The position numbers were made by a program, and so were the translations under genes. DNA of 64,000 nucleotides from a virus (lineage: Duplodnaviria; Caudoviricetes), in IMG/VR virus record IMGVR_UViG_3300021400_000130, positions 1 through 64,000 of that record, one strand, 5' to 3'. This document shows, one piece after another, positions 3,065 through 25,006 of this stretch. The notes beneath the pieces were generated by a model. That model made no database searches. It saw nothing but the letters and a program-made list of their open reading frames with translations, and was not told where the DNA came from. Numbering within the stretch: the stretch's first letter is position 1; each line of letters starts with the position of its first letter.

Positions 3065-3534
3065 TAATTAAAGGCATTAGAGACGAAGATTTTTGTCAGT
3101 ACAAAGAAACTTCTTTCTTTATAGCCTTTCCAAGATGCACATTTAAGTGTGAGAAAGAGTCAGGCAAATTGTGTTGTCAGAATAGTAGCCTATACAAAGA
3201 ACTTCCAATAGACGTTACTACAGATAGTTTAGTCAATCGTTACTTGCAAAATCCGATTACTTCTGCAGTTGTATTTGGAGGGCTAGAACCATTTGATTCA
3301 TTTCAAGACTTATTTGATCTGATAGAGTGTTTTAGAACAAAAACAGATGATACAATTGTTATCTATACAGGGTACAATGAAGAGGAAATAGAAGAATATA
3401 TTTCCGCAATAAGTAAGTTTAAAAATATAATTGTTAAGTTTGGCAGGTTCATTCCCAATGCAAAACATAGATTTGATCCTGTATTAGGAATAGAACTTGC
3501 TTCTTCAAACCAGTATGCAAAGAAGATTTCATAA
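3061..3534 (+). CDS. nrdG: Anaerobic RNR activating radical SAM protein
   Basis: CTFKC...CCQN cluster motif, GGLEPF, IYTGY, GRFI, SSNQ; follows nrdD. Confidence 0.9.
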   Translation: MIIKGIRDEDFCQYKETSFFIAFPRCTFKCEKESGKLCCQNSSLYKELPIDVTTDSLVNRYLQNPITSAVVFGGLEPFDSFQDLFDLIECFRTKTDDTIVIYTGYNEEEIEEYISAISKFKNIIVKFGRFIPNAKHRFDPVLGIELASSNQYAKKIS

Positions 3535-3606: not shown

Positions 3607-3969
3607 ATGTACAAACACACAGAAAAAGAAACCCCCGAGGTTATTGGGCACTATCGAATCTATAGTGATCCCGAGGCAAAGATCATCGTTGCAGTTAGCC
3701 GTTATGCTGGTAAAACTGTACGAGGAGTTGCAAAGTGTCATCCCAATGATGAATTTGACATCGAGTTTGGAACAAAACTTGCGATTGCAAGATGTGAATT
3801 TAAAGTAGCGAACAAACGTGCGGATAGAGCATACAAGAAAGTCAATGAAGCTCAAATGGATCGTCTCAAAGCAGAAATTCATCTGCGTGATATGCTTGAT
3901 TATCTGGACGGTGCCAATAAGGATCTTAAGATCGCCAGTGAGCTTCTTGAGGAACTTGAACAGAAGTAA
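3607..3969 (+). CDS. Hypothetical phage protein
   Basis: ORF with SD GAGGAAGG; GVAKCHPNDEFDIEFG motif common in phage proteins. Confidence 0.75.
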   Translation: MYKHTEKETPEVIGHYRIYSDPEAKIIVAVSRYAGKTVRGVAKCHPNDEFDIEFGTKLAIARCEFKVANKRADRAYKKVNEAQMDRLKAEIHLRDMLDYLDGANKDLKIASELLEELEQK

Positions 3970-3980
3970 GGAGTTATCTC

Positions 3981-4175
3981 ATGTATAATGATTGTTATAG
4001 TACTTGTGGCATAGCCAATAACAAGTGTAAAAACAAGTATTGTAGTGCTAATCCAAACTATTCTGCTCCTGTAGCAAAGGCTAAGGAGAAGCAAGGTTCT
4101 GGAAAGCCTACTCATCGTAAGAGGGCAAGTATCCCCAAGTACGACCATCTGATGTTCAGCTACTTTACAAAGTAA
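3981..4175 (+). CDS. Small Cys-containing basic hypothetical protein
   Basis: SD AAGGAG, 64 aa ORF. Confidence 0.55.
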   Translation: MYNDCYSTCGIANNKCKNKYCSANPNYSAPVAKAKEKQGSGKPTHRKRASIPKYDHLMFSYFTK

Positions 4176-4182
4176 CATATAG

Positions 4183-4245
4183 AAAGACAATTACAGCAAC
4201 AAGAAAATTTTCTTTTATTAGGGTTAAAAAGAATAGTTGTCTTGT
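4183..4245 (+). ncRNA. YACAGCAA-stem RNA, copy 1 (candidate Ro60/DUF2828-associated Y-like RNA)
   Basis: AAGACAA(4184-4190)-TTACAGCAA...TTGTCTT(4237-4243)G terminal stem. Confidence 0.65.
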
Positions 4246-4416
4246 AGATTAGATATCATGTGAAGAGAGAGGTAATGCTTATGATTACTAGTGCACTTCA
4301 TATTGGAGGTAGACTCCAGACTTTCTAATCTAGTGCTGAGCAACACTATAAACTGTTCTTATGAGTAAACCGGGGGAGGTACTGAGATGTCCGGGTTATC
4401 AAAACCCTCCTTTTAT

Positions 4417-4491
4417 AGGCCCGTAGTGTAAATGGCAACACAACAGACTTTGACTCTGTCGTAGTAGGTTCAAATCCTGCCGGGCCTGCCA
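4417..4491 (+). tRNA. tRNA-Gln(TTG)
   Basis: AGGCCCG/CGGGCCT acceptor, ACAGA-CTTTGAC-TCTGT, GTTCAAATC, CCA. Confidence 0.92.
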
Positions 4492-4616
4492 CTTACTGAG
4501 TCTCAAAGGTTTGAGGGGAGACAGTAAACTAATCCTTTCACAACAAAGTGATAGAAACCCTCCTCCTTTTCTTAAAAAATAAGATTGTATATAATAGATA
4601 GGAAATACACACACAG

Positions 4617-4856
4617 ATGAATGAAGTTGTTTGGGTATCAAAAAACAGGCATGTAATAATTGCAGAAACAAACCCTATTTTTTCATACCAGGATAAAACA
4701 TATTCAATATACAGAGAAAATTGGGACTACGGAAAATTTAATTCTACAGAGTTCTACAGTATAACATGGTTCTTTGAAAGATGGGAAGATACTTTAGAAG
4801 AAGCTATTAGATATGCAAATTTCATTCCGGACGAAGTATATAAAACTAATGTATGA
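4617..4856 (+). CDS. Hypothetical protein
   Basis: 79 aa ORF with AGGA SD. Confidence 0.55.
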   Translation: MNEVVWVSKNRHVIIAETNPIFSYQDKTYSIYRENWDYGKFNSTEFYSITWFFERWEDTLEEAIRYANFIPDEVYKTNV

Positions 4857-5092
4857 ATAATTGTATTATAATTTTAATATGTTGGGTAGTTTTTTCAGTT
4901 ATACTTGTTGTCTGTGATAAATCTGGAGAAATTAGTTTTGAACATGATTTAGTATTTGCTATACTAACTGCCCCGATATCTATTCCTTTACTTTTAGTGC
5001 TAATTCCAGTTGCCTTTATAGTAAAGTTTTTTAATAAATATAAGAATAAGATTCACATTGATTTTCCAAGAAGACGCAGAAGGCGTTTTTAA
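4853..5092 (+). CDS. Small membrane protein
   Basis: Two hydrophobic segments and a basic C-terminus; ATGA overlap with the previous ORF. Confidence 0.55.
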   Translation: MNNCIIILICWVVFSVILVVCDKSGEISFEHDLVFAILTAPISIPLLLVLIPVAFIVKFFNKYKNKIHIDFPRRRRRRF

Positions 5093-5097
5093 TAAAT

Positions 5098-5172
5098 GCT
5101 CCTATAGTATAAAGGTTATTACAAGGCACTTGTAATGCTTAGATCTCCGTTCGACTCGGAGTAGGAGCTCCA
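5098..5172 (+). tRNA. tRNA-Thr(TGT)
   Basis: GCTCCTA/TAGGAGC, AGGCA-CTTGTAA-TGCTT, GTTCGACTC, CCA. Confidence 0.92.
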
Positions 5173-5175
5173 CTT

Positions 5176-5251
5176 GCGGATGTAGCTCAATTGGTAGAGT
5201 GTCGCCCTTCCAAGGCGAATGTTGCGAGTTCAAGCCTCGTCATCCGCTCCA
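5176..5251 (+). tRNA. tRNA-Gly(TCC)
   Basis: GCGGATG/CATCCGC, loop CTTCCAA, CCA. Confidence 0.95.
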
Positions 5252-5254
5252 CAT

Positions 5255-5332
5255 GGCCCCTTCGACTAGTAGGTCTAGGTCACAAGATTTTCAATCTTGT
5301 AACGGCGGGTTCAAATCCCCCAGGGGTCACCA
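5255..5332 (+). tRNA. tRNA-Glu(TTC)
   Basis: GGCCCCT/AGGGGTC, CAAGA-TTTTCAA-TCTTG, CCA. Confidence 0.92.
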
Positions 5333-5457
5333 CAATATAGTTACGAATAGTCCAAGACAGATAAGTTAGTATCTTGAAACGAGAGGGTAAACTGCTTATC
5401 CAAACCAACGCCTGATAAGTGAAAAGCTGGACAGGGGGTAGTAACTATATTATATAT

Positions 5458-5543
5458 GGGCAGGTAACCCAGCGGCGAAGGTAGCGGACTGTAAATCCGT
5501 GACAATAGAAACATCGGTGGTTCGAGTCCACCCCTGCCCACCA
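5458..5543 (+). tRNA. tRNA-Tyr(GTA)
   Basis: GGGCAGG/CCTGCCC, loop CTGTAAA, long variable arm, CCA. Confidence 0.95.
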
Positions 5544-5551
5544 TAAAATAT

Positions 5552-5628
5552 GCCCCCGTAGCTCAGCTGAATAGAGCATGCGCCTTCTAAGCGCAGGGTC
5601 GCTGGTTTGAATCCAGCCGGGGGTGCCA
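5552..5628 (+). tRNA. tRNA-Arg(TCT)
   Basis: GCCCCCG/CGGGGGT, TGCGC-CTTCTAA-GCGCA, CCA. Confidence 0.93.
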
Positions 5629-5816
5629 CCTGTATATCAGGGTAGGTAAGAGATACGCCTACTCCGGAGAAGGTATCTAAGGGAACTCGGATACAGAGGT
5701 TAAGCCCATAATGCGGTGACGAATAAAACTATTCCGCAGAGTGTGATATATCCTCAACGGTAAGGAGAGTTAAGCACACGGGTGTTCTAGACGCCTTTCC
5801 TTACGCCAATTTATCT

Positions 5817-5904
5817 GCCGCTAGGCCCGGACGGTAAGGGGTCCGATTGCTAATCGGAAGCCAGGTGAAAGTCTGAGAAGGTTCGACTCCTTCTAGTGGC
5901 GCCA
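5817..5904 (+). tRNA. tRNA-Ser(GCT)
   Basis: GCCGCTA/TAGTGGC, TCCGA-TTGCTAA-TCGGA, long variable arm, G73, CCA. Confidence 0.9.
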
Positions 5905-5920
5905 ATTAGATATAATGTAT

Positions 5921-5996
5921 GCGGGTATAGCTCAGTTGGAAGAGCAAGCGACTTTTAATCGAGAGGTCGGCGGTTCGAATCCGCCTACCCGCACCA
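5921..5996 (+). tRNA. tRNA-Lys(TTT), with two mismatches at the top of the anticodon stem
   Basis: GCGGGTA/TACCCGC, AGCGA-CTTTTAA-TCGAG, CCA. Confidence 0.9.
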
Positions 5997-6070
5997 GCTG
6001 CACGAAAGTGCTTGCAAACTATAAAGAACTAATAGTTGATTTTTATTTGTTCTTATATTATAATTTACAT

Positions 6071-6179
6071 GTAGAATAAGGAAGTACCTTAACTGGTAAG
6101 GTTGCCTGTTCGAGTCAGTGAAGTTACAAACGTAACTAAGTGGATAACCAGTAGTTCAACTCTACACTTCCCATTCTAC
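6071..6179 (+). ncRNA. Degenerate tRNA-Ser(CGA)-like RNA with extended terminal stem
   Basis: GTAGAAT/ATTCTAC and GGAAGT/ACTTCC stems, D-arm CCTT-AACTGGT-AAGG, CTG-TTCGAGT-CAG, T-like arm GTAG-TTCAACT-CTAC; directly after the promoter at 6036. Confidence 0.5.
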
Positions 6180-6216
6180 CTCTGAAAAGTGAATATGGAA
6201 GAAAGGAAGATGTCTC

Positions 6217-6342
6217 ATGTCTAAGTTTTGGAAGAACTTAGAAAGAGCTCTTACCCTATATGCGCTCGGTATGAACCCGGTAACTATGCGCTATATGAGT
6301 ACTGATGAGGTTAGAGCTCTCTTGTATGACGATAAGGAGTAA
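6217..6342 (+). CDS. Small 41-aa hypothetical protein (MSKFWKNLERALTLYALGMNP...), below the ORF-track cutoff
   Basis: SD GAAAGGA at 6201-6207, ATG 6217, TAA 6340-6342. Confidence 0.55.
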   Translation: MSKFWKNLERALTLYALGMNPVTMRYMSTDEVRALLYDDKE

Positions 6343-6402
6343 TTCACTTCTTATCGTAGTTGATGAGATATACTTCTAGGTATTTAAAAATTTAAGAAAT
6401 AT

Positions 6403-6477
6403 GGCCCCGTAGCTCAGAGGAAGAGCACGCGCCTGTTAAGCGCGATGTCGAGATATCGTAATTCTCCGGAGCCTCCA
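6403..6477 (+). tRNA. tRNA-Asn(GTT), atypical T-loop
   Basis: CGCGC-CTGTTAA-GCGCG, T-loop ATCGTAA, CCA. Confidence 0.85.
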
Positions 6478-7264
6478 GTCCCTTGGGAGTAGGGAGGGTT
6501 GATAAACTCCATCGTAACGCGAAATGCCAGAATGTCGCGGCTAATGTCGGGAGCAAAACCGATGAGGAAGATTTCCGCCTCGCAGGAGTGCAAAAGGTGA
6601 CGGAGACACGACACGCAACGAAATAGTGGTCGTCGTTTGTTAAATGGAAAACGTTAATATTCCATTACTGAGTTACCAGTCCAGGTAAGGTCAACTCAAC
6701 CAACTGGTTATTTTAAGTATCCATATTAGACGGTCTAATGTAATTGTGCGCGTTCGGTTCGATTCCAGCGGTGTCCGAGTTCGACTCTTGGGCGCGCCTG
6801 GTGGCAATATCAATTACTACTTAAAAATGTTTATCGCCAATCCTTCCGATAACTGCGACAAGGAAGGTGAAGAAGAATCGCAGTTCTTCTAATAAGTGAG
6901 CAACGACTTACGGAGAGCGCCGGACACCTCGCCCGTTGAGGAGGGAAATATTGGGTGAATGTCACTATTCCCAATTACCAGAACATAAGGGCATATGGAA
7001 TGGTATATGTGACGGTATTAGGCTTGAAATCCTAACGAGACATCGTGAAGAGTTCCGTTCTTGTGGTTGATGCTTTACCACTTGTCGAATAGTAGTAGCA
7101 TACAAAGAGGAATGCTGTTAGACGTGAGGGGATGCCCGAAGTAGACGAAACAGTATGTGTACAGCCTCCGAGAAGTTGGGCACGAGACTTCTAATATAAT
7201 AAACTATCTTATATACCATGTTGTATATAAGACCAAAGTGAAAGTATAACTTCCCTTTCTTTAT

Positions 7265-7340
7265 GCGATCTTAGCTCAGTTGGTAGAGCAGCGGATCGAT
7301 AATCCGAAGATCGTAGGTTCAAATCCTGCAGATCGCACCA
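7265..7340 (+). tRNA. tRNA-Ile(GAT), with C33
   Basis: GCGATCT/AGATCGC, GCGGA-TCGATAA-TCCGA, GTTCAAATC, CCA. Confidence 0.88.
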
Positions 7341-7508
7341 GGAGCCGTTACGAACAAAATTTCATAGGACTATTAAACAAGTAGGAGTAATTAACCTAAA
7401 CTATTTAATAACACCGTGATTGCCGATTGGGTCAGAGATTATTTGAGTTGCAACTTGTCAAATAATCGTAATCGGATGTGTAGTTGGCTGACTTCAAAGC
7501 CACCATAT

Positions 7509-7592
7509 GCCGATGTGGTGGAATGGTAGACACGCTAGTCTTAGGAACTAGTGCCACATGGCGTGCAGGTTCAAGTCCTGTCATCGGTACCA
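7509..7592 (+). tRNA. tRNA-Leu(TAG)
   Basis: GCCGATG/CATCGGT, loop CTTAGGA, variable arm, CCA. Confidence 0.95.
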
Positions 7593-7769
7593 AACAGGCT
7601 AAGCTGTATAATAAAGGACGCGAGTGGTTTCCTGCGGTGCCTTCTTAGCAAAAACGGGGAGAGAGACGGTTTGGTCCCATGAATAAACATGGAGTAGAGT
7701 AACACCAAATAACTTAGTAGACATATCGCATAGGAGCTCGTGAGGTATGCCGAAGTTACTCAATTATAT

Positions 7770-7856
7770 GCCGAAATGGCGGAATTGGTAGACGGAGAGG
7801 TCTCAAAAACCTCTGCCATAAACGGCGTGTGGGTTCAAGTCCCACTTTCGGCACCA
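7770..7856 (+). tRNA. tRNA-Leu(CAA)
   Basis: GCCGAAA/TTTCGGC, loop CTCAAAA, variable arm, CCA. Confidence 0.95.
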
Positions 7857-7982
7857 GAGAAGCGAGAGAATCTAATGAGTTAGTATTACGTACTACGGCT
7901 CAAAATTGGAGAAACAGATTTGCAATAATATCTCGTAAGGCACTTCTCACCACATTAAATTTAAGGAGGTACTGAAAGGGTA

Positions 7983-9764
7983 GTGAAAAAGTTAATCAAA
8001 GTATTTGTTGAAATTCTACTTCTTGCCTTGTGTTTTACAATTTTTGCCCCTTTAACTTTTGCTGATGTTGATGTACCAGAAATTCCTAATACAGAAGGTA
8101 TGAATGTAGACGATGCAAATGCCTTGATTGAGAAGTATAATAGTGAAGTAGACAATTATAACTCTCAAGTTCAGGAAGAGTATGAGGATCAACTTGCTCA
8201 AACCACACTTCATAATAAAGAAGAAGATCAGAAGGTCGCTGAGAATGCAGAAGAGATTGCCTCAGCTGAACAACAGAATGCTGAGATTCTTGCAGATTAT
8301 GAAGCGGCTAAAGCGGAAGCTGATGCAGTAAATGCACAAGAAGATGAGAAGGTAGAAGAGAGTCAGAAAGCTATAGAAGAAGCTAATGCTAAAAATGAGG
8401 AACTTTCTCAACAGATTGATGCAGCAGAACAGCACAATGCTGAAGAGGATCAGAAAGTTGAAAACTCACAGGCAGAACTAGCAATCATAGAGGATAAGAT
8501 TGAAGGCGACGCTGATGTTGTTGAGCACCATACAGAAGATGCGGCAGACGCTCCTACTGATTGGTCTGACACTACTCAAGATGCCAAAACAATCTCTGTT
8601 ATTTCGTCAGAAACTCCTACAGGAGATAAGATTTCTGTTATTAATATTCACACTTATATAGATGGCGATTCTATTAGTGGTAATCTGTATGAGAGTATAG
8701 ATAATGATACTTTCAAGCTTTCTCCAGAGCTACTAAAAGATGCAGTTCTTGTTGAATGGGAAACAGTAGAAATTGATGTTGATGACACTGTAGTAATAGA
8801 GAGTGAAGCTAGTTTATTTACCGATAACACAATCAGACACGAAGGAAAAAATTATAGACTTCAATCTTACTATTCTTATTTCATTAGAAATATAGAAGGA
8901 TATACTCAAGGCTATTGGCTTGCGAGTGGAATGGTTGCTATGACAGCAACAGATGTAGAATATGGTTGGGGATATGATTTTTCCACTGGCGAAGGTAAAG
9001 CTGGGGACACCTACACAATTCACTATGGAGAAACTGTAAGAAATGTTAACTATCTAGAAGATGGAGTATTAAAGACAGAACAGGTTACCGTTAGAACAAC
9101 AGATGGTGACGCTCCTAAAAATATTTTTGCTTTATTTGTATACACCTTTACTAGGTTGTGGGAAGAGCCAGTAGAATATACTCCAGAGTATGTTGAAGTA
9201 CCTACACTAGTTGATGTTCCTGAAGCATATGTACCACAGTATGTTAGTGTTGATCCTCCTACATATGTAACTGTTCCTGAAGTATATCAGCCTAATTATC
9301 TTGAAGCTCCAGATGAGCCGGTTCTTCTTACTAAGTTGGATTATCTAGCTCCAGTTGTCAATCCAGTTCCTACAGTCACACCAGCTCCCGTAGTTGAAAT
9401 TGTAGAGTCTGAAGATCTTCCTGAGGAAGAAGAAGTAAAGAATATAGAACCCGACGTTGAAATCTACGATGACCCAGAGGTTCCTCTTGCGGATATATCT
9501 CAGTCTCCGGCTTGGGCATTGATTAACTTAATTATTCTTGTTTTAACTATTTTAAGTTTAATCAAACTTGGAGATAGAGGCTATACTGTCTTTAGTCCTA
9601 TTTCTGTTATTAGTTCTTTAGTTCTATTCATACTCACTGAGAATGTATATAATCCAATGATAATGGTAGACAGATGGACAGTATGGATGATTGTTATTTT
9701 TGTAATTGCTATTCTATCAAGAGTATTTGCAAAGAAAGATAAGAAAGAATCCCTAGTAGAATAA
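7983..9764 (+). CDS. Secreted/membrane-anchored acidic surface protein
   Basis: N-terminal signal peptide, acidic coiled coil, Pro/Val/Glu repeats, EIYDDPEVPLA motif, C-terminal TM helices. Confidence 0.75.
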   Translation: MKKLIKVFVEILLLALCFTIFAPLTFADVDVPEIPNTEGMNVDDANALIEKYNSEVDNYNSQVQEEYEDQLAQTTLHNKEEDQKVAENAEEIASAEQQNAEILADYEAAKAEADAVNAQEDEKVEESQKAIEEANAKNEELSQQIDAAEQHNAEEDQKVENSQAELAIIEDKIEGDADVVEHHTEDAADAPTDWSDTTQDAKTISVISSETPTGDKISVINIHTYIDGDSISGNLYESIDNDTFKLSPELLKDAVLVEWETVEIDVDDTVVIESEASLFTDNTIRHEGKNYRLQSYYSYFIRNIEGYTQGYWLASGMVAMTATDVEYGWGYDFSTGEGKAGDTYTIHYGETVRNVNYLEDGVLKTEQVTVRTTDGDAPKNIFALFVYTFTRLWEEPVEYTPEYVEVPTLVDVPEAYVPQYVSVDPPTYVTVPEVYQPNYLEAPDEPVLLTKLDYLAPVVNPVPTVTPAPVVEIVESEDLPEEEEVKNIEPDVEIYDDPEVPLADISQSPAWALINLIILVLTILSLIKLGDRGYTVFSPISVISSLVLFILTENVYNPMIMVDRWTVWMIVIFVIAILSRVFAKKDKKESLVE

Positions 9765-9807
9765 ACTATAATGCAGTTGGCAGTCTGCATAATTACTGCC
9801 ACTATAT

Positions 9808-9885
9808 AGTTCCGTAGTGAAGTTGGTGTATCACGCCTGCCTGTCACGCAGGAGATCGCGGGTTCGAGCCCCGTCGGGACTGCCA
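9808..9885 (+). tRNA. tRNA-Asp(GTC)
   Basis: AGTTCCG/CGGGACT, CCTGC-CTGTCAC-GCAGG, CCA. Confidence 0.95.
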
Positions 9886-10177
9886 GCCAGTTGTAAGTTA
9901 TCTGTAAAACTTTCTAACTCCATTCTGAGTTATAAGTTACGAACACATGAAGTTACGAACATGAGTCAGTTGGTTTTGAAATCCTCCTGTGATTGGATGG
10001 AGAGTACCCGCCATGGAAAAACACAACTTAAAGTGGTACGAAGTGGGTTAGCGTACACAAGGTTGATTACATACCTAAAAGTAGGAGTACTGATGACTTA
10101 TTGTACTTAATATTCAGGGTTACAAATCCTACAAAGTAATCCGAAGAGGACAACTGCGTTAACAAAGTGTCATTTAT

Positions 10178-10253
10178 GGGCCTGTAGCTCAGCTGGGAGA
10201 GCGCCTCGTTTGCACCGAGGAGGTAGCGGGTTCGAGTCCTGTCAGGTCCACCA
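10178..10253 (+). tRNA. tRNA-Ala(TGC)
   Basis: GGGCCTG/CAGGTCC with G3:U70, loop TTTGCAC, CCA. Confidence 0.95.
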
Positions 10254-10439
10254 AGAAACTTATTGGTATGGATTTTATGTGTTTGTTCCGCCAATAAGAA
10301 AAAAACACTTTACGCTTAGGAAAAGGTTCAAATGTTCCTAGCAAATAAACAATAGAAATCTCGCATAGTGAAAGCGTTCTAATAAGATTTCAGCGTATAA
10401 TTCAGAAACAACCTTTCTTACTAATTAAGTAAAATATCT

Positions 10440-10512
10440 GGGTAGGTAGCACTATGGAGTGCGGGACAAAGTCCACCGCGGGAAGTTGGTTCGATTCCAA
10501 CCCTATCCACCA
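10440..10512 (+). ncRNA. Anticodon-less tRNA-like RNA with Ala identity elements (G3:U70, A73, CCA)
   Basis: GGGTAGG/CCTATCC-A-CCA, D-arm GCAC-TATGGA-GTGC, GGAC-AAA-GTCC in place of the anticodon arm, T-arm GTTGG-TTCGATT-CCAAC. Confidence 0.75.
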
Positions 10513-10637
10513 GTGTGCGTAGCTTTGAGATCGTGCACAACAACGAAAAATCCTTCTGCCAAAGGTATTGCTACACAACTTTGGGGGTACGCGTTAACAA
10601 ATAAACGTAACTAGTAGAAATATTAGTTACAAAATAT

Positions 10638-10710
10638 TGCGGGGAGAATGAGTATTCACTCTGGCCTCATAAGCCAGATTCCGTGGGTGCGACTCCCACC
10701 CCCGCAACCA
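10638..10710 (+). tRNA. tRNA-Met(CAT), initiator-like acceptor, reduced D-arm
   Basis: TGCGGGG/CCCCGCA-A-CCA, CTGGC-CTCATAA-GCCAG, T-loop TGCGACT. Confidence 0.85.
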
Positions 10711-10875
10711 AGTAGCCCAACCGCGAGAACCTGTGGAGAATCACCCGAAGGTTTGCTTGCGGGAAGATACCTTGCAGTGGCGCCTGCGCCGTTTGTTAGT
10801 CAGGGTTGAGAATGTGATCGCGACACGAAGCAGAATTGCAAGGGCTTGTCTGCTCTACAATATAAGGAATAGTAT

Positions 10876-11439
10876 ATGATTAAAGGTTTGTATAAGTGTT
10901 TTGAGCACTGGCATAAAGAGGGCACTGTTTGGTTATATAGTGATCCTCATTTTAATGATGATAAAGATCTTCTTATTCCTTTTCCAAATAGACCTTCTGC
11001 TGAAGATCAGATTAAAATGATTAATAGTAAAGTTGGTCGAAATGACCACCTTATCATTCTTGGGGACATAGGCGATATTGAATGTGCTAAGAAATTGAGA
11101 GGACACAAAGTTCTGATTAAAGGCAATCACGATTTTGGTTTGTCAAACTATGAGGGCATCTTTGAAGAAGTATATGGTGGTCCTCTTATGATAAGTGAGT
11201 CAATTATACTTTCTCATGAACCTTTAGATATAAACTGGGCGTTTAATATTCATGGACACACTCATCTTCTAAGTAAAGTAAGACCAGGTCATTTATGCGT
11301 TTGTAGTGATGTTTTAAACTATACCCCCGTTAATTTCAATCAGTTTGTTAAATCTGGCAGATTGAAGGAGATAAGACCTCTACATAGATCAACAATTGAT
11401 GAGGCAACTAAAAGGAAACAGAAAAGAAACAAGATTTAG
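10876..11439 (+). CDS. Calcineurin-like metallophosphoesterase
   Basis: SDPHF, LGDIG, KGNHD, SHEP and IHGHTH motifs. Confidence 0.9.
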   Translation: MIKGLYKCFEHWHKEGTVWLYSDPHFNDDKDLLIPFPNRPSAEDQIKMINSKVGRNDHLIILGDIGDIECAKKLRGHKVLIKGNHDFGLSNYEGIFEEVYGGPLMISESIILSHEPLDINWAFNIHGHTHLLSKVRPGHLCVCSDVLNYTPVNFNQFVKSGRLKEIRPLHRSTIDEATKRKQKRNKI

Positions 11440-11466
11440 TTGAATATAATGTCTGTTTACTATATA

Positions 11467-11610
11467 ATGTTATATGTAAAACAATTTGACTGGCTTGAGA
11501 ATTCAAATACTGTAACAGACAAATTTTATTTTCATATTCATTCAATGAATCCTGTAGGCGTTCAGAATATGCGGAATATTATTAAGCATAATGGATGGAA
11601 GGAACTATAA
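11467..11610 (+). pseudogene. C-terminal remnant of a cyclic-phosphate-processing receiver-like domain protein
   Basis: Frame reads ...DWLE...FHIHSMNPVGVQNMRNIIKHNGWKEL*; the N-terminal part is absent and the ATG overlaps the -10 box. Confidence 0.5.
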
Positions 11611-11611
11611 C

Positions 11612-11878
11612 ATGAAAACATATAATGAAAATTCTATGTTTGCTTACATCTATGGTAATCCTCATCAAACTAATATTCGTTATATTTCTAATGATAAGCT
11701 ACTTCTACAAGAGATGGCAATGGATGATTATTTTGAATTTATGTATGAACATTGGTTTGTAGACTCATATTCTAATATTCATAATATACCTTGGATTGAC
11801 CCGAAAATGTATTGGGATTGTTATGGTAACCAATCGAAACTTTATAATGTAATAGACATTTCTGATATATATATTTAA
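11612..11878 (+). CDS. Hypothetical protein
   Basis: ATG after SD GGAAGGA. Confidence 0.55.
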   Translation: MKTYNENSMFAYIYGNPHQTNIRYISNDKLLLQEMAMDDYFEFMYEHWFVDSYSNIHNIPWIDPKMYWDCYGNQSKLYNVIDISDIYI

Positions 11879-11895
11879 AAGAAGGTTGATTTAGC

Positions 11896-12216
11896 ATGAA
11901 AATGTATGACAAGAAGTCCACTAATGTAGTTGAAGCTGTCGATTTCTATTCTGACGGTACTGTTCTTGTTTATGACCCAAATCTTGGTGCTAAACAGAAT
12001 GGTAACGGTTGGGTTACTGTAAAGCGTAATCGTCTTATCCCTGCTGATTATGCTGAAATGTTTATTAGTGGTATGAGTAAGACTGAAAAGAATAAAATTA
12101 AACAACGGCTTACTCTTGTCAGTGCTTCGTGGGAAACCACAGACGGTAAAGTATTTGATCATCTTGACAACGCTGTTGAGCACGAAAAGGAATTGATAGA
12201 ATCTGAAAACAGTTGA
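11896..12216 (+). CDS. Hypothetical protein
   Basis: 106 aa ORF with AAGG SD. Confidence 0.7.
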   Translation: MKMYDKKSTNVVEAVDFYSDGTVLVYDPNLGAKQNGNGWVTVKRNRLIPADYAEMFISGMSKTEKNKIKQRLTLVSASWETTDGKVFDHLDNAVEHEKELIESENS

Positions 12217-12226
12217 TTTCTAATAC

Positions 12227-12317
12227 AAAGACGCATACAGCAATATATTTAATGGTTAAAATTTTAGACTGTCAATCTGAAGTGATACGGTTCAAATCCG
12301 TAAAATACGCGTCTTGT
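12227..12317 (+). ncRNA. YACAGCAA-stem RNA, copy 2, containing D, anticodon (GTC, Asp) and T arms
   Basis: AAGACGC/GCGTCTT terminal stem, ATACAGCAA, ATTT-AATGGTTA-AAAT, TTAGA-CTGTCAA-TCTGA, TACGG-TTCAAAT-CCGTA; no acceptor stem and no CCA. Confidence 0.8.
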
Positions 12318-12375
12318 TAATAATAGTTGATTTTAACATATTAGTTATATATAATATTCTATGTTAAATAAATAT

Positions 12376-12465
12376 GCGTCCTTAACCCGAGCGGCCTTGG
12401 GACCTGTCTTGAAAACAGTGTGTACCTGATGAGGGTATGGGGATCGACACCTCAGGGGCGCGCCA
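12376..12465 (+). tRNA. tRNA-Ser(TGA), atypical D/T loops
   Basis: GCGTCCT/GGGGCGC-G-CCA, CTGT-CTTGAAA-ACAG, variable arm, T-loop ATCGACA. Confidence 0.8.
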
Positions 12466-12478
12466 TTTAATAGATAAT

Positions 12479-12521
12479 AAAACACTCACAGCATATATAA
12501 AAGGACATAAAAAGTGTTTTG
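12479..12521 (+). promoter_or_regulatory. YACAGCA-stem element, copy 3, in the 5' leader of the Ro60-like gene
   Basis: AAAACACT-CACAGCA...AGTGTTTT-G, ending at SD GAAAGGA, 15 nt before ATG 12536. Confidence 0.65.
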
Positions 12522-12535
12522 AAAGGAAAGATAAT

Positions 12536-14059
12536 ATGAACTTTATTCATGAGATGAAAAAAACCAATGATATGAACACTCTTGTTTATACTGAAAATGG
12601 AGCTCTTGGGCATAAGAGTACGGGTAAGTATCTCCTTGACCTCAACTTCTCGGTCGCCTCTTTGCGTAGTATGAAGCCCGCAGAGATTTTTGAGAAGTTT
12701 GAAAATGCTTTCATCGAAGATCCTCGTTTGGCAATGCGTTGGCTCTTCTTCGCTCGCGATGTTAGAGGCGGTCTTGGTGAGCGTAGACTCTTCCGCATCT
12801 GCATGATGAACCTTGCTTCTAGTAATCCGGGCATGGTCAAAGCTCTTGTTACTATGATCCCTGAATACGGACGTTGGGATGATCTGTGGAGTCTTCTCGG
12901 AATTAACAAGGAAGTTGACGAAGAAATCTTTTCAGTTACTAACGATCAGCTCGTTTGTGATCTGAAAAGCTGTGACGTAGGAGAGCCTATCTCTCTTCTT
13001 GCAAAATGGCTTCCGTCCATCAATACTTCATCTAAGGAAACTCGTAACTTAGCTCACAAGTTTGTTAAGAAGTTTGATCTGACGGAGAGGGCATACCGTA
13101 TTATGCTGAGTAAGCTTCGTAAGTATCTTAAAGTTACGGAAACTCAGATGTCTAGCGGCAACTGGGACAAGATTAAGTACGAGTCTGTTCCTTCTCGTGC
13201 CAATCTTCTTTACAAAGATGCTTTCATGCGTCATGATTCAGTTCGTAGAACTAAGTATCTAGAAGATCTGAAAAATGGTACTACCAAGATTAATGCTTCT
13301 ACTCTGTTTCCTCATGACATTGTTCATATGTGTCGTAAGGATGATGAGTCAGTGGAGCAGCTGTGGAAGAATCTTCCTGATTTTGTAAAAGGAGATTCCA
13401 ATACGATTGTTGTTGCCGATGGTAGCGGCTCAATGAATTGCCCTGTCGGTTCTTCTAACATTACAGCTTGGGAAGTTGCTCATGCTCTTGCTATTTACTT
13501 TGCAGAGCGTTGCTCCGGACCTTATAAAGATAAGTATATCACCTTCTCCGCGAGACCTCAGTTTGTTAATCTTAACGGAGGCACTCTATACAATAGTCTT
13601 TATATTGCTCGTAGACATAGTGAGTGCAGTAACACTAACATTGAAGCTGTATTTGATCTCATCTTGAATACAGCTATCAGAACTAATGCAAAACAGAGCG
13701 ATATTCCTAACAATATTTTAATTGTTAGCGATATGGAGTTTGATGATGCTACTTATGGTTATTCTTGGGGACCTGATAAGTTCGACAGACCTTCGGAGAC
13801 TCTCTTTGAAACCATTCGTCGTAGGTGGGAGAACGCTGGGTACAAACTTCCTCGGCTTGTTTTCTGGAATGTAAATTCTCGTACGGGCTCTATTCCTGTC
13901 ACTGAAAATGAGCTTGGCGTTGCTCTTGTTAGTGGATTCTCTCCTGCAGTTTGCAAGATTGTCCTTAGCGGTAAGCTTGATCCTTACGGTGCTCTTGTTG
14001 ATGCCCTTATGGATATGAGATATGATCCTATTGAGGAAACAATCGAGAGATTTATCTGA
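12536..14059 (+). CDS. DUF2828-type Ro60/TROVE-like protein with C-terminal vWA domain
   Basis: TENGA..STG..LDL.F N-terminus, RDVRGGLGER, YGRWDDL, AKWLPS, vWA MIDAS DGSGSM, SDMEFD, FWNV, SGFSP. True start is 12536 after the SD; the track start lies inside tRNA-Ser. Confidence 0.85.
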   Translation: MNFIHEMKKTNDMNTLVYTENGALGHKSTGKYLLDLNFSVASLRSMKPAEIFEKFENAFIEDPRLAMRWLFFARDVRGGLGERRLFRICMMNLASSNPGMVKALVTMIPEYGRWDDLWSLLGINKEVDEEIFSVTNDQLVCDLKSCDVGEPISLLAKWLPSINTSSKETRNLAHKFVKKFDLTERAYRIMLSKLRKYLKVTETQMSSGNWDKIKYESVPSRANLLYKDAFMRHDSVRRTKYLEDLKNGTTKINASTLFPHDIVHMCRKDDESVEQLWKNLPDFVKGDSNTIVVADGSGSMNCPVGSSNITAWEVAHALAIYFAERCSGPYKDKYITFSARPQFVNLNGGTLYNSLYIARRHSECSNTNIEAVFDLILNTAIRTNAKQSDIPNNILIVSDMEFDDATYGYSWGPDKFDRPSETLFETIRRRWENAGYKLPRLVFWNVNSRTGSIPVTENELGVALVSGFSPAVCKIVLSGKLDPYGALVDALMDMRYDPIEETIERFI

Positions 14060-14097
14060 TTTCTAATAGGGAGTACATTTTAACTACTCCCTTATAT

Positions 14098-14173
14098 CCG
14101 GGCGTAACCCAGCTGGTAGGGTGCGTGGTTTGGGACCACGAGGCCGGGGGTTCAAATCCCTCCGCCCGGACCA
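14098..14173 (+). tRNA. tRNA-Pro(TGG)
   Basis: CCGGGCG/CGCCCGG, CGTGG-TTTGGGA-CCACG, CCA. Confidence 0.95.
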
Positions 14174-14174
14174 T

Positions 14175-14241
14175 AAAGACGGTTACAGCAAACTTAACTG
14201 GAATAGACTTTTAATCTATAATACCAAACCTCCCGTCTTGT
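14175..14241 (+). ncRNA. YACAGCAA-stem RNA, copy 4, with a perfect tRNA-Lys(TTT) anticodon stem-loop
   Basis: AAGACGG/CCGTCTT stem, TTACAGCAA, ATAGA-CTTTTAA-TCTAT (14203-14219). Confidence 0.78.
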
Positions 14242-14294
14242 TTTAGTTGATTTTTTGATTTATTATATTATAATAAATATGTAGAATAAAATAT

Positions 14295-14446
14295 GCCTTG
14301 GCAGCTCAGATGGTTTGAGCTCCCGACTTCAAGAGATAGCTTAACAGGAAAGCAGCGTAGCTTTAGAAACGAAGATGTAAGTGCAATTCTTACTCTCTTG
14401 GCCAATAATCGGGTGATCGTTGGTTCGAGTCCAACCCAAGGCACCA
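14295..14446 (+). tRNA. Interrupted tRNA, probably Ile(TAT), with a 75-nt insert in the anticodon
   Basis: GCCTTGG/CCAAGGC-A-CCA, normal D and T arms, CCCGA-CTT[insert 14330-14404]ATAA-TCGGG; 77 nt without the insert. Confidence 0.8.
14330..14404 (+). ncRNA. Nested tRNA-like RNA (CCA-ended, loop CTTTAGA) inside the outer anticodon
   Basis: CAAGAGA/TCTCTTG-G-CCA, TA-GCTT-AACAGGA-AAGC, T-arm GTAAG-TGCAATT-CTTAC, imperfect anticodon arm. Confidence 0.75.
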
Positions 14447-14715
14447 TATAGACATTGTAAGGATTGAAAGGTGTCAGCAATTGCAAGTTGCTATCCAGTT
14501 AATTAATAAGTGTATGCGGTTCACAACCGACTCACGTACCAGTAGTTAATCTTGCATAATACATACTGGTGGGAGTGAGCACAATTCAAACACTCGAAGG
14601 GTAGATAGGGGTAGGAGCTGTAATAGTGGTACAGCGAATGGCACACAGCGACCGATTAAATACTTAGGTCATTCCACTGGTGTGCGTGTAGAGTGCGAAT
14701 TGTGAATTAGAAAGG

Positions 14716-14964
14716 ATGTCACAGATGTACAGAATTACTTTCATAAGATTAGGAAATCATTATTACTGCACGGGATATCTTGGAAAGAACCCTGACAGAG
14801 GATTTTTTACAAAAGAGTTCCAAACTATCGAAGAAGCTGTTAAGTTCTGTGATAAACTTCCTGTTGAAGTTTACATTAAATCCTTAGATAACTTTACAAA
14901 GAAGGAAAGAATAGTTTTCAATAGAAAAAGACTTAGTGTCTGGAGACACAAGAATTCATTTTAA
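14716..14964 (+). CDS. Hypothetical protein
   Basis: 82 aa ORF near SD GAAAGG. Confidence 0.5.
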   Translation: MSQMYRITFIRLGNHYYCTGYLGKNPDRGFFTKEFQTIEEAVKFCDKLPVEVYIKSLDNFTKKERIVFNRKRLSVWRHKNSF

Positions 14965-14968
14965 ATTT

Positions 14969-15038
14969 AAAGGCTCATACAGCAATTCTTTTTTATAATG
15001 CTGACTGTTCATCTGCTAACTATAAAAACGAGCCTTGT
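14969..15038 (+). ncRNA. YACAGCAA-stem RNA, copy 5, with an Asn(GTT)-like anticodon arm
   Basis: AAGGCTC/GAGCCTT stem, ATACAGCAA, GCTGA-CTGTTCA-TCTGC. Confidence 0.75.
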
Positions 15039-15052
15039 ACTTATGTTATTGT

Positions 15053-15125
15053 AAGACCCATACAGCAACTTATCTATTATATAATTATTGTAAATTATTG
15101 AATTAGATCGGAAATCGGGTCTTGT
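15053..15125 (+). ncRNA. YACAGCAA-stem RNA, copy 6, with a possible Tyr(GTA)-like loop
   Basis: AAGACCC/GGGTCTT stem, ATACAGCAA, TAATTA-TTGTAAA-TTATTG. Confidence 0.72.
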
Positions 15126-15139
15126 TTTTTAAAGTTAAT

Positions 15140-15282
15140 AAAGACGCACACTGCAAATATTTTTATAATATTTGAAAGTTTTTGTACACCCTAAACTCTA
15201 TACATCGGAAATAGTTAGATGGTAAGTAAGTTGAGTGTTCCGTTGTGGAGTATAAATTAAAGAACTAAGTCCTGCGTCTTGT
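15140..15282 (+). ncRNA. YACAGCAA-stem RNA, copy 7 (long variant, CACTGCAA)
   Basis: AAGACGCA/TGCGTCTT-G stem followed by CACTGCAA. Confidence 0.65.
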
Positions 15283-15289
15283 TTTATAT

Positions 15290-15377
15290 GCTGGTGTGGT
15301 GGAATAGGTAGACACAGCGGACTTAAAATCCGCTGGCCTTAAAAGCCGTGTCGGTTCGAGTCCGACCACCAGCACCA
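15290..15377 (+). tRNA. tRNA-Leu(TAA)
   Basis: GCTGGTG/CACCAGC, GCGGA-CTTAAAA-TCCGC, CCA. Confidence 0.95.
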
Positions 15378-15544
15378 CTATTATTAGAGTCGAGCAAAAG
15401 TCACAAGTGATGTTGGCCTAAAAAGGGTAACCGCGGCCTACTGAAACGTATGTCAGAGGAGATTTAGAAATTAAATACGAGTGATAGTATTTAGGACTCT
15501 TGTGTACTTCCGGTCTTGCTCGACCGGGCTCTAATAGTAGACCA
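15378..15544 (+). ncRNA. Long-stemmed structured RNA ending in ACCA
   Basis: CTATTATTAGAGT/GCTCTAATAGTAG, GTCGAGCAA/TTGCTCGAC and CACAAG/CTTGTG stems. Confidence 0.55.
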
Positions 15545-15648
15545 TTGGAGAAAGTCCTGCATAGAGGCGGCAACATAAAACTGTGTCAGGTCAGTTTTGA
15601 ATAAGGCGGTCTATATGGCTACCTTATGTTTTTTAACTGACACAGTAT

Positions 15649-15725
15649 GCGGGCGTAGCTCAGCTGGTTAGAGCACCTGCCTTACAAGCAGGGGGTCGAT
15701 GGTTCGAGCCCGTCCGTCCGCACCA
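15649..15725 (+). tRNA. tRNA-Val(TAC)
   Basis: GCGGGCG/CGTCCGC, CCTGC-CTTACAA-GCAGG, CCA. Confidence 0.95.
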
Positions 15726-15768
15726 ATACTGAAAACAGATCTTCTTAATCTTTTTTAAAGGAAATAAA

Positions 15769-16152
15769 ATGAAGTTTAAAACATTAACAACAGAAGACTT
15801 TGAATTGGAAGAAAAGTTTCTAAGTCCTGCAGTTAGAGCAAAGAAATATCAGAAGCATGTAATAGATCAGAAGTCATTTGGTAAACATATGACAGAAGAA
15901 AATTATGAAAAAGCGGCTGATGATCTTGCAAATAGTAAAGTAGATTACAAAACAGTACTTGGATATAAAGCCTGTGACGATAAAGGTCAAGAAGCTTTTA
16001 TAAAGTACAACACTAAGACAGAGGAGTATGTAGTCTATCATAGAGCACCTTCTGGAGAGCCTTTAATTGTTAGTTTCTATCATAGACCTCTAAGAGAGTT
16101 TACAGGAAAGAAAGCCTTAGAATATATTGATGAACTTCCAGATACGGAGTAA
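15769..16152 (+). CDS. Hypothetical protein resembling small toxin RNase domains
   Basis: YQKHV...SFG..MTEENYEKAADDL pattern and C-terminal IVSFY; precedes a CPCC-domain gene. Confidence 0.5.
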   Translation: MKFKTLTTEDFELEEKFLSPAVRAKKYQKHVIDQKSFGKHMTEENYEKAADDLANSKVDYKTVLGYKACDDKGQEAFIKYNTKTEEYVVYHRAPSGEPLIVSFYHRPLREFTGKKALEYIDELPDTE

Positions 16153-16166
16153 CAAGGAGTTTAAAG

Positions 16167-16910
16167 ATGACTATTGAAGATCTGAAGAAAACAAAAGAGT
16201 TCAGAGAGTATGGTTACACAATTGTTAAATGTCCTATTTGTGGTGAACCTACACTAGATAGATTCTGGATCTGTGATACTTGTGGTTGGGAGTTTGACGG
16301 TGCTATTCTTCCCGATCATTACTCAAGTGCTAATGGTTGTACTGTTAGCGAATATATTCATAAGTATAGAGTAAAACACAAAATTCCTGTCAATGAAATG
16401 AAGAAGGGTACAACTCAATACGGACTAGATTCAGGATTTACAAGAGGCACAGAAACAATTGAACCTCTTGTTACTGTTCAGATTAAAAGATGTTCAAATA
16501 CTGCTATTCTTCCTACAAAGGCACATGAAGATGATGCTTGTTATGATATATATGCAGACTTGTGTGATAAATCTTTTGTAACTATTCCACCTCACACTTC
16601 TGCTTCAATCATGTCTGGGTTTAGCTCTTCTATTCCGAAAGGATATTTTGGAGCTGTATTTGCAAGAAGCGGCCTAGGTTGCAACAAAGGGCTTCGTCTA
16701 GCAAACAGTGTTGGTGTTATAGATTCTGGATACAGAGGCGAATGGAAAGTAGTTCTTCATAATGATAGTGATGAAGAAAGAATCGTATCACATGGGGATA
16801 GAATTGCTCAGTTTACTCTCTTACCTGTTATTGCTTCTGAACTAATTGAAACAGACGAGCTTGATACTACAGACAGAGGTTCTGGAGGCCTTGGTAGTAC
16901 AGGGAATTAA
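16167..16910 (+). CDS. dut: dUTPase (trimeric) fused to an N-terminal Cys-rich CPCC-like domain
   Basis: ARSG, GVIDSGYRGE, RIAQ and RGSGGLGSTG dUTPase motifs; N-terminal CPICG...ICDTCGWE...SAN. Confidence 0.9.
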   Translation: MTIEDLKKTKEFREYGYTIVKCPICGEPTLDRFWICDTCGWEFDGAILPDHYSSANGCTVSEYIHKYRVKHKIPVNEMKKGTTQYGLDSGFTRGTETIEPLVTVQIKRCSNTAILPTKAHEDDACYDIYADLCDKSFVTIPPHTSASIMSGFSSSIPKGYFGAVFARSGLGCNKGLRLANSVGVIDSGYRGEWKVVLHNDSDEERIVSHGDRIAQFTLLPVIASELIETDELDTTDRGSGGLGSTGN

Positions 16911-24414: not shown

Positions 24415-24415
24415 G

Positions 24416-25006
24416 ATGGGATACAGACAATATATTTTTTCAGTAGAAACTTGGTTAGTTGATGAAATTAGAAAATGCAAAACCGAAGACGAATTCATTA
24501 AAACTATGCAAAAGTTCCGTAATGATTCTGTAGAATATGATGGTGTTGATGAAACGTATTACTTCCCCCTTTATCGTTTAGGTGAAGAACTATACGAGTT
24601 TGGTAAGTATTGGGAAAATTCAGACGAGATGTATAAACATGGTGACTCATTATTTACAAGCGATGAGCTAAATGAAAAATACGAAGATTACGGAGCAATT
24701 GTACTTGACGAAGAAGGTCTTCTTTGTGCCATCGAATGGTATAGGTCACATGTAGAGAAAATGTATGAAGATCTTCTCTCAGAAACTTCTACAAATGAAT
24801 GGGACACTAGACCTCAGTTTGATAGACTGAAAGAACATGTACAAGATTATCTCTATTGGTGGAAGAATACTGGACCCGGAAATCTTAATAAAAAAACTGA
24901 CTGTATTGTTAACTCATGGTTGTATGAGCACGGGTATTTTGAACTTGTTCGTATTTACAAGACATTTGATTGGGACAATAACTCATTGATTTTTCTTGGC
25001 TGGTAA
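24416..25006 (+). CDS. Hypothetical phage protein
   Basis: 196 aa ORF ending FLGW. Confidence 0.7.
   Translation: MGYRQYIFSVETWLVDEIRKCKTEDEFIKTMQKFRNDSVEYDGVDETYYFPLYRLGEELYEFGKYWENSDEMYKHGDSLFTSDELNEKYEDYGAIVLDEEGLLCAIEWYRSHVEKMYEDLLSETSTNEWDTRPQFDRLKEHVQDYLYWWKNTGPGNLNKKTDCIVNSWLYEHGYFELVRIYKTFDWDNNSLIFLGW

Follow-up and report, generated by a model that had tools for sequence, protein, structure and literature searches.

Small RNAs with a constant stem-and-ACAGCAA handle accompany a divergent Ro60-like gene in phages: a probable Y-RNA-like class

Do the small repeats that surround a Ro60-like gene in a phage tRNA array encode the RNA partners of its product? The question arises from IMG/VR record IMGVR_UViG_3300021400_000130, of which positions 1 to 64,000 (here the window) were analyzed. 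The window covers the first 64 kb of a phage genome that is complete at 153.6 kb (153,613 bases), with terminal repeats, and it carries a tRNA array at 4.4 to 15.7 kb with 18 to 20 tRNA genes, all on the plus strand according to ARAGORN and Rfam. Within this region, an initial annotation made from the sequence alone had described seven repeats, each with a covarying stem and a YACAGCAA motif, most of them close to a gene that it took to be Ro60/TROVE-like, and had proposed a Y-RNA-like system. Our results confirmed that the seven repeats are true copies of one small RNA family. They further indicate that the gene product is, as judged from its predicted structure, a full-length but sequence-divergent Ro60, and that the RNAs are probably its partners.

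The seven elements lie on the plus strand in the tRNA region, and none further was found in the 153.6-kb genome (Table 1). Each is composed, in order, of an A, the 5' strand of a 7-bp stem, 1 or 2 variable bases, ACAGCAA, an insert, the complementary strand, and a G; this last G follows the 3' strand in all seven copies. The stems are usually AAGACNN pairing with NNGTCTT, and the motif, located 0 to 1 nt past the stem, reads YAC(A/T)GCA(A/T), with ACAGCAT found once, ACTGCAA once, and ACAGCAA otherwise. We refer to the stem and the motif as the handle and to the sequence between the motif and the closing strand, 19 to 117 nt long in the window, as the cargo. All seven stem pairs are where the initial annotation had placed them, and the third can also be read 1 base earlier, as AAAACAC/GTGTTTT. 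Its coordinates also agreed in that six of the seven elements lie no more than 1.3 kb from the Ro-like gene. When a pattern for the 5' half was searched in the whole genome, eight matches were found, all on the plus strand, compared with none forward and one reverse for a control pattern. The eighth match (31924) had no closing stem. Element 1 precedes the array's first tRNA by 172 nt, element 4 starts 2 nt past the CCA of a tRNA-Pro, and element 7 ends 8 nt before a tRNA-Leu. Element 3 is part of the 5' leader of the Ro-like gene, with its end 15 nt upstream of the ATG. A megablast search of the region against cultured phages gave no match.

Table 1. Coordinates and features of the Ro60-like gene, the seven handle elements of the window, and handle-interrupted tRNAs elsewhere
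Feature	Position	Strand	Stem strands (5'/3')	Description
Ro60-like protein, 507 aa	12536..14059	+		DUF2828 (helical ring part) and DUF7788 (vWA domain)
Element 1	4183..4244	+	4184/4237	AAGACAA/TTGTCTT, then G; TT-ACAGCAA; AU-rich hairpin cargo; R1 47.6 bits, E 4.5e-8
Element 2	12227..12316	+	12228/12309	AAGACGC/GCGTCTT, then G; AT-ACAGCAA; R1 43.6 bits, outside the training set
Element 3	12479..12521	+	12480/12513	Minimal copy; AAACACT/AGTGTTT, or 1 base earlier AAAACAC/GTGTTTT, then G; TC-ACAGCAT; 19-nt cargo; R1 33.8 bits, E 6e-5
Element 4	14175..14240	+	14176/14233	AAGACGG/CCGTCTT, then G; anticodon-arm mimic as cargo; R1 49.3 bits
Element 5	14969..15037	+	14970/15030	AAGGCTC/GAGCCTT, then G; AT-ACAGCAA; 8-bp second helix with CUGUUCA loop; R1 50.5 bits
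Element 6	15052..15124	+	15053/15117	AAGACCC/GGGTCTT, then G; AT-ACAGCAA; AU-rich hairpin cargo; R1 56.8 bits, E 4e-10
Element 7	15140..15281	+	15141/15274	AAGACGC(A)/(T)GCGTCTT, then G; variant CACTGCAA; 117-nt structured cargo; fold z -2.75
Handle-interrupted tRNAs	L009 9583-9713; L127 2130-2235 and 2243-2355; B23 (= L142) 3369-3478			ACAGCAA or ACTGCAA

We then built a covariance model, R1, for which 39 short copies were used; the window contributed 5, and most came from other phages. R1 recovered six of the seven window copies (E 4e-10 to 6e-5), including element 2, which had not been used for training; in element 7 it matched the 5' part only. Nothing besides these copies was detected across the 64 kb at E < 0.05. 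The ACTGCAA variant of element 7 was seen again in locus L024 and in Synechococcus phage B23. In about 60 further copies from relatives, the stems differed and always paired, with double changes at all seven pairs, and the first pair could be A-U, U-A, or G-C. The stem covariation that had been claimed is thus borne out, with the limit that the counts are not independent proof because 100% pairing was built in by the copy filters. Independent support comes from the finding that stem-closed copies occur only in genomes with the Ro-like gene (see below). The stems are lineage specific, with AAGACNN in the group of the window, AGACCNN in FelixO1, TAGGAANC in Listeria phages, AAGAANC in Enterococcus phages, and TGGACNNN in mycobacteriophages, while ACAGCAA and the trailing G are constant.

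The gene inside the array was examined in sequence and in structure. Its product matched Pfam DUF7788 (E 4e-44), DUF2828 (E 1e-34), and PHROG 850 ("RNA-binding protein"); at E <= 0.01, these two were the only Pfam domains found, and the TROVE domain gave no match. Homologs are numerous, with 6,884 representatives of 50%-identity clusters (E <= 1e-3), and were found in 710 of 50,697 phage records. In an alignment of 63 members, the DxSxS...T...D MIDAS (metal ion-dependent adhesion site; D295, S297, S299, T367, and D399 in the window protein) was invariant, and many Arg and Lys residues were conserved in the N-terminal ring part. A phmmer search of PDB sequences with the single protein gave only noise; with a profile, the top four matches were all Ro60, at a marginal E of 0.02. 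An AlphaFold2 model was of high confidence (pLDDT 93, pTM 0.92). The 13 best PDB matches in Foldseek were all Ro60 proteins, from Thermus phage phiLo, Xenopus, human, and Deinococcus (Rsr). Aligned by VIA-align with 1yvp_A, the RNA-bound Xenopus Ro60, the model gave a Z of 20.0 and a root mean square deviation of 3.9 A over 417 of 507 residues, whereas the best non-Ro chains had only the vWA domain in common (Z no higher than 11.3). The predicted fold thus has the helical-repeat ring followed by a vWA domain with its MIDAS, as in Ro60, at an identity of 11 to 17% to the solved Ro60s. Given the difference between these fold matches, the window protein is, on its predicted structure, a full-length Ro60 of divergent sequence, and the Ro60/TROVE-like assignment that had been made from sequence holds over the full length of the fold.

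In two IMG/VR relatives (G010:C1:100502-102025 and G008:C1:57012-58565), the Ro-like gene crosses in-frame stops or is in two pieces, with one TAA in one of them and one TGA and one TAA in the other; this could be recoding, a frameshift, an insert, or decay. Separately, relatives with a CUA-anticodon tRNA (amber-reading, called Pyl by ARAGORN) and one tmRNA gene were found at L086 1619-1707 and 3100-3399 and at L113 1672-1746, and TAG may be read as sense in some relatives.

Next, the link between the handle and the gene was examined in both directions. To go from motif to gene, IMG/VR was scanned for exact matches to AAAGACNNNTACAGCAA, with 14 fixed bases, and 115 loci (L numbers) were obtained, most of which are chance matches given that number of fixed bases. 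A closing 7-bp stem was present for 27 matches in 25 loci, with a G next to it in 23 of the 27. Among these stem-closed loci, a homolog of the gene lay inside the fetched stretch in 10, and a search of whole records found it in all 11 of the others that were at least 57% complete; those without it were fragments of 5 to 20 kb only. Among large contigs with stemless matches, 2 of 18 carried the gene (L076 and L124), and R1 matched both of these records; a hairpin-closed handle is present in L076. From gene to motif, R1 matched 10 of the 12 cultured or complete phages with the gene: the P100-like Listeria phage cka15, Salmonella phage FelixO1, Staphylococcus phage S-CoN_Ph4, Bacillus phage Thrax2, Enterococcus phage EFDG1, Campylobacter phage NCTC12673, Mycobacterium phage Finnry, Sinorhizobium phage phiM7, Vibrio phage VH7D, and Prevotella megaphage Lak-B2. 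It also matched all 12 IMG/VR genomes with the gene. No match was obtained in 11 IMG/VR contigs without the gene or in five tRNA-rich phages without it (T5, T4, K, Bxz1, and CcrColossus). Bxz1-type mycobacteriophages and CcrColossus are reported to have classical Ro60 orthologs together with YrlA-like RNAs (PMC4201824, PMC12135203). Overall, R1 was found in 22 of 24 genomes with the gene and in 0 of 16 without it (Fisher p = 2.4e-9). The motif is therefore tied to the gene, and its independent occurrence was not seen. In Synechococcus phage B23, one of the two R1-negative phages with the gene, handles with TCAGCAA or ACTGCAA in place of ACAGCAA lie just downstream of the gene.

The handle copies usually adjoin the gene. 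In the 10 cultured phages, whose genomes range from 75 to 550 kb, 16 of the 20 R1 hits were no more than about 1.1 kb away from the gene, and none of the 20 was on the opposite strand; in IMG/VR, 41 of 42 hits were on the strand of the gene. Copies were located at 25287-25554 in cka15 (OR088597.1, minus strand) and at 23870-24704 in FelixO1 (AF320576.1), where they are not annotated tRNAs. The design is found in phages of Firmicutes, Proteobacteria, Actinobacteria, Campylobacterota, Bacteroidota, and cyanobacteria. Since the handle RNA was found only where the gene is present, and usually next to it, it is probably the partner of the Ro-like protein.

Two of these phages have other non-coding sequences nearby. 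In EFDG1, a similar hairpin-capable leader of about 45 nt, GGTTTTG...AGTTCC...GGAACATA, precedes each of three elements upstream of the Ro-like gene (L134 870-940, 1075-1125, and 1255-1305). In cka15, CKA15_059-061 (L132 4440-5000) is a larger, separate non-coding stretch with a TTGACA-type promoter and is not a handle copy; it corresponds to the most abundant transcripts of the phage and is one of three such regions (PMC12282133). The three cka15 handle copies lie 650 nt past it and have their own TTGACA-N17-TATCAT. Non-coding stretches also occur upstream of elements in L011 (9460-9620) and L014 (9460-9570).

The cargo was surveyed in 69 curated copies with a rough motif classifier. About half of the copies had a short AU-rich hairpin. 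In about 10, the cargo was a hairpin like an anticodon arm alone. The CUUUUAA loop of tRNA-Lys (UUU) was present in four of these copies, and in three of the four its stem was of the covarying NNAGA/UCUNN type. Element 4 is such a copy (AUAGA-CUUUUAA-UCUAU), and the same loop on covarying stems was found in L031 and L047. A T arm was recognized in about 23 copies, including 22 of the 26 that were at least 100 nt long. Some cargoes have tRNA parts in the normal order. That of element 2 is a tRNA core without the acceptor stem, i.e., a D arm, an anticodon arm (CUGUCAA loop, GUC, Asp type), and a T arm; 12247-12302 matched positions 10 to 63 of the Rfam tRNA model (37.4 bits). This was the only Rfam tRNA match to an element of the window, and ARAGORN called a complete cloverleaf with an acceptor stem in none of the seven. 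Whole tRNAs were called by ARAGORN inside elements of L067 (1347-1419, Asn) and L113 (7282-7355, Gly). A third layout, in which a T arm is followed by a closed acceptor hairpin, sometimes with the discriminator and CCA kept, and then by a D arm, is that of YrlA. It was found in about 10 IMG/VR copies, in EFDG1, in Finnry, and in element 4 of FelixO1, and in none of the seven elements of the window, where element 2 has the order D, anticodon, T. According to Rfam, the cargo matched YrlA in EFDG1 (43 to 45 and 34 bits) and Finnry (39.5 bits), with E values of 4e-7 to 2e-4. All YrlA scores in relatives (34 to 45 bits) are below the 69-bit gathering threshold, because the Ro-binding stem part of the model fits poorly. 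These inserts lent unexpected support to the Y-RNA analogy that had been drawn.

The system was then compared with the Ro60 systems already described. Like bacterial Rsr with YrlA and YrlB (Chen et al. 2014, PMC4201824; RF02553), it has a Ro60-fold gene beside small RNAs on the same strand, and the RNAs have an end-formed stem joined to a short conserved motif of the 5' strand, here a 7-bp helix whose 5' strand leads, at the inner end, into the near-invariant ACAGCAA. Many copies from other phages share with YrlA a tRNA-like domain of T arm, closed acceptor, and D arm. Unlike Rsr, the phage protein is DUF2828 plus DUF7788, with no TROVE match. The cargo is also far more varied than in YrlA, as it includes lone anticodon arms, normal-order tRNA cores, and non-tRNA hairpins, and, unlike YrlA, the handle also occurs hairpin-closed within tRNAs. 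Thermus phage phiLo likewise encodes a Ro60-fold protein (PMC12135203; PDB 9KOP, 9L5Y), which ranked first among the Foldseek matches to the window protein (E 1e-8, Z 15.3). Two Y-like RNAs, Yrl1 and Yrl2, are encoded just upstream of it, and their binding was demonstrated by electrophoretic mobility shift assay and cryo-electron microscopy (PMC12135203). Unlike the window system, phiLo Ro60 is annotated with a TROVE domain and its RNAs have a CGAA motif in a stem-bulge-stem; nothing like ACAGCAA or a cargo of tRNA parts is described in that paper (PMC12135203). Rfam 15, searched at the gathering threshold and at E <= 5, had no family for the handle and assigned it no other function. No paper defining the handle turned up when the literature was searched in full text, and two papers guess at Y RNAs near these genes. 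The RNA family was thus found in none of the catalogues and papers searched.

Those two papers deal with proteins that are probably orthologs of the window protein. CKA15_055 of the Listeria phage was matched directly; the equivalence of gp130 of the FelixO1-like phage Bas63 was deduced from its having the same genus and position as FelixO1 ORF86, which is common to 251 related records. Bas63 gp130 is Ro60-like, is encoded directly upstream of tRNAs, and counters Ppl defence (10.1101/2024.10.10.617714). CKA15_055 has Rsr as its best HHpred match and was detected in purified virion preparations, with the authors' warning that its association with the particle may not be genuine (PMC12282133). 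The Ro60 likeness and the adjacent tRNAs were noted in both the Bas63 (10.1101/2024.10.10.617714) and CKA15 (PMC12282133) papers, and Y RNAs were guessed to be nearby. Neither identified the RNAs.

Taken together, these observations make it likely that the handle RNAs form a Y-RNA-like class, undescribed as far as we could find, that the Ro-like protein binds; the binding itself we infer. The elements would be small non-coding RNA genes that combine a constant protein-binding handle with an exchangeable cargo, and they may be transcribed with the tRNA array and cut out alongside the tRNAs, giving discrete RNA species with defined ends. By analogy with Ro60 and Y RNA, the Ro-like protein would grip the helix and the ACAGCAA strand directly on its outer surface and carry the cargo. 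A cargo that resembles a tRNA could let the particle engage or divert tRNA-recognizing proteins; candidates are host tRNA-cleaving defence nucleases, tRNA repair or processing enzymes, and exonucleases. A copy in or beside the leader of its own gene, as seen for element 3 and for the corresponding last copies of L011 and L014, might in addition allow the protein to restrict its own synthesis.

RNA repair and counter-defence agree with the genomic context. In CKA15, the region 1.3 to 4 kb downstream encodes an RtcB "tRNA splicing ligase" together with an RNA ligase. The genome of the window encodes a phosphoesterase (10876-11439) and, at its right end, an Rnl2-type ligase (PF09414, 72.6 bits; G000:C1:152980-153540), which, with the genome ends joined, would precede the tRNA array by a few kb. 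A more specific and rather doubtful possibility is a programmable decoy or adaptor. One Ro-like protein would read the ACAGCAA handle, and each RNA would show another tRNA part (an anticodon arm of Lys, Asp, Asn, or Tyr type, a complete tRNA body, or a tRNA in permuted order) and so sequester or divert the host enzymes by which tRNAs are attacked or processed, while real tRNAs bearing a handle would be escorted or repaired.

Several observations weigh against the handle RNAs being Y-RNA-like partners of the protein. The canonical Ro-binding motifs, GGUCCGA of animals and GNCGAAN0-1G of bacteria (PMC4201824), occur in none of the seven copies, in which YACAGCAA is conserved instead, so that the motif is indeed, as had been remarked, unlike that of the classical Y-RNA stem. 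In the window, no element reached an Rfam Y-RNA model, and the weak YrlA matches overlapped ordinary tRNAs only. Y RNAs typically have a second helix after the motif; here it is no general feature, with a mean best run of 5.4 versus 4.8 in shuffles. Phage Aeh1 has the gene with no handle within 1.5 kb of it and none at E < 0.01, some genomes have detected copies 6 to 62 kb from the gene, and the co-occurrence could be due to a third, common partner. Finally, gp130 alone, expressed from a plasmid or in T7, relieved Ppl defence (PhageMaP preprint, 10.1101/2024.10.10.617714). At least this relief thus needs no phage handle RNAs, which may not be required for every activity and may instead serve to modulate, gate, or retarget the protein.

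The handle also occurs in an inverted form, in which the 3' strand, the G, a short loop, the 5' strand, NN, and ACAGCAA follow each other as a closed hairpin. Besides the free-standing copy in L076, this form interrupts tRNAs of L009, L127 (two of them), and B23 in the region of the anticodon or of position 26; apart from the insert, these tRNAs are normal (Table 1). ARAGORN missed those of L009 and L127, and that of B23 is annotated as tRNA-Undet. Because the closed hairpin exists, the handle needs no free ends, which suits a self-contained protein-binding module. The same interrupted tRNAs would be expected if the handle were instead a processing or "caging" signal of the phage tRNA system, acting in the excision of inserts or the joining of permuted tRNA ends, with the Ro-like protein helping maturation. 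The bulge-helix-bulge motif of archaea is a comparable processing signal. The permuted-tRNA cargoes that keep the discriminator and CCA in the closed acceptor loop (L060, L115, and L067), the whole tRNAs inside elements of L067 and L113, and the nearby RNA ligase genes all speak for such a role. We nevertheless regard it as unlikely, because about half of the 69 copies, and at least four of the seven in the window, have a short AU-rich or anticodon-arm-only cargo that cannot become a tRNA. Moreover, joining the cargo ends of the parsed permuted copies gave no canonical 7-nt anticodon loop, no co-occurring endonuclease gene was found, and RtcB is absent from the genome of the window.

The position of element 3 raises another possibility, namely that the elements are cis signals of the tRNA array or of the Ro-like mRNA (regulators, stabilizers, insulators, or terminators) and not RNAs acting in trans. 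In L014, the last copy directly adjoins the ribosome-binding site, and in L011 there are 30 nt between the end of the last copy and the start codon. In VH7D and phiM7, a match to ACAGCAA, judged by the motif only, lies about 40 nt upstream of the start codon. A promoter-like TTGATT-N16/17-TATAAT directly follows elements 2 (12327-12355) and 4. This explanation is slightly less probable still than a processing signal. Some genomes have five or more copies, many kb from the gene and between tRNAs, the cargo is diverse and includes whole tRNA-like domains, and in EFDG1 a promoter lies between the copies and the gene. Among 11 terminator-like sites in 3900-16200, none coincided with an element; an intrinsic terminator is a G+C-rich hairpin with a loop of 3 to 8 nt and a U run after it, and the handle helices enclose 19 to 117 nt of cargo past the motif. 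As for action in trans through base pairing, TTGCTGT, the complement of the motif, occurred seven times in the window, which is about the number expected by chance, and never in the tRNA region. It is highly improbable that we are dealing with a miniature mobile element, or with a repeat that recombination has spread, linked to the gene merely by common module ancestry: several copies per genome do lie in a recombination-prone tRNA region, some of them within tRNA genes, but their inverted ends vary and yet compensate, which indicates selection on pairing rather than a transposase site, the motif is asymmetric (5' side only) and keeps to the strand of the gene at the rates given above, and the same design is kept, with lineage-specific stems, across phage hosts of several phyla.

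Other unusual RNAs were observed in the tRNA region of the window. At 14294-14445, a tRNA (acceptor GCCTTGG/CCAAGGC, with normal D and T arms) has an insert of about 75 nt in its anticodon loop, and the insert forms its own cloverleaf (CAAGAGA/TCTCTTG, discriminator G, CCA; Rfam tRNA, 43 bits). This insert was considered as a handle copy (AAGAGA/TCTCTT followed by G, TAACAGGAA) and rejected, since it is a separate cloverleaf with CCA and had no R1 match. Downstream of it, 14446-14715, before an open reading frame at 14716-14964, is a non-coding stretch of 270 nt that is apparently richer in G+C than its surroundings and may represent one more structured RNA. A class-II-like, tRNA-shaped RNA at 12375-12465, downstream of the promoter-like site, separates elements 2 and 3. 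It ends in GCGCCA, its variable arm is long, the anticodon-type loop reads CTTGAAA, and the T loop is odd (ATCGACA); it was called by neither ARAGORN nor Rfam. A tRNA-like sequence at 10440-10509 was found by Rfam at the E-value threshold only (38.6 bits) and not by ARAGORN, and its anticodon region is a very short hairpin.

DUF2828/DUF7788 proteins are among the commoner unexplained proteins of phages, and their RNA partner had previously only been guessed. The gene is core in FelixO1-like phages and is present in groups of Listeria, Enterococcus, and Staphylococcus phages, and one member of the family defeats a bacterial defence. With the handle defined, dozens of "hypothetical" mini-open reading frames and odd "tRNAs" in phage genomes can be annotated. 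If the Ro-like protein binds the handle, the Ro/Y-RNA paradigm would gain a second code for the recognition of RNA by protein. For bacterial Y RNAs, tRNA mimicry is a question of long standing, and the cargo directly suggests it here. A decoy or adaptor role, if true, would represent a new principle of counter-defence and a new use of the Ro fold.

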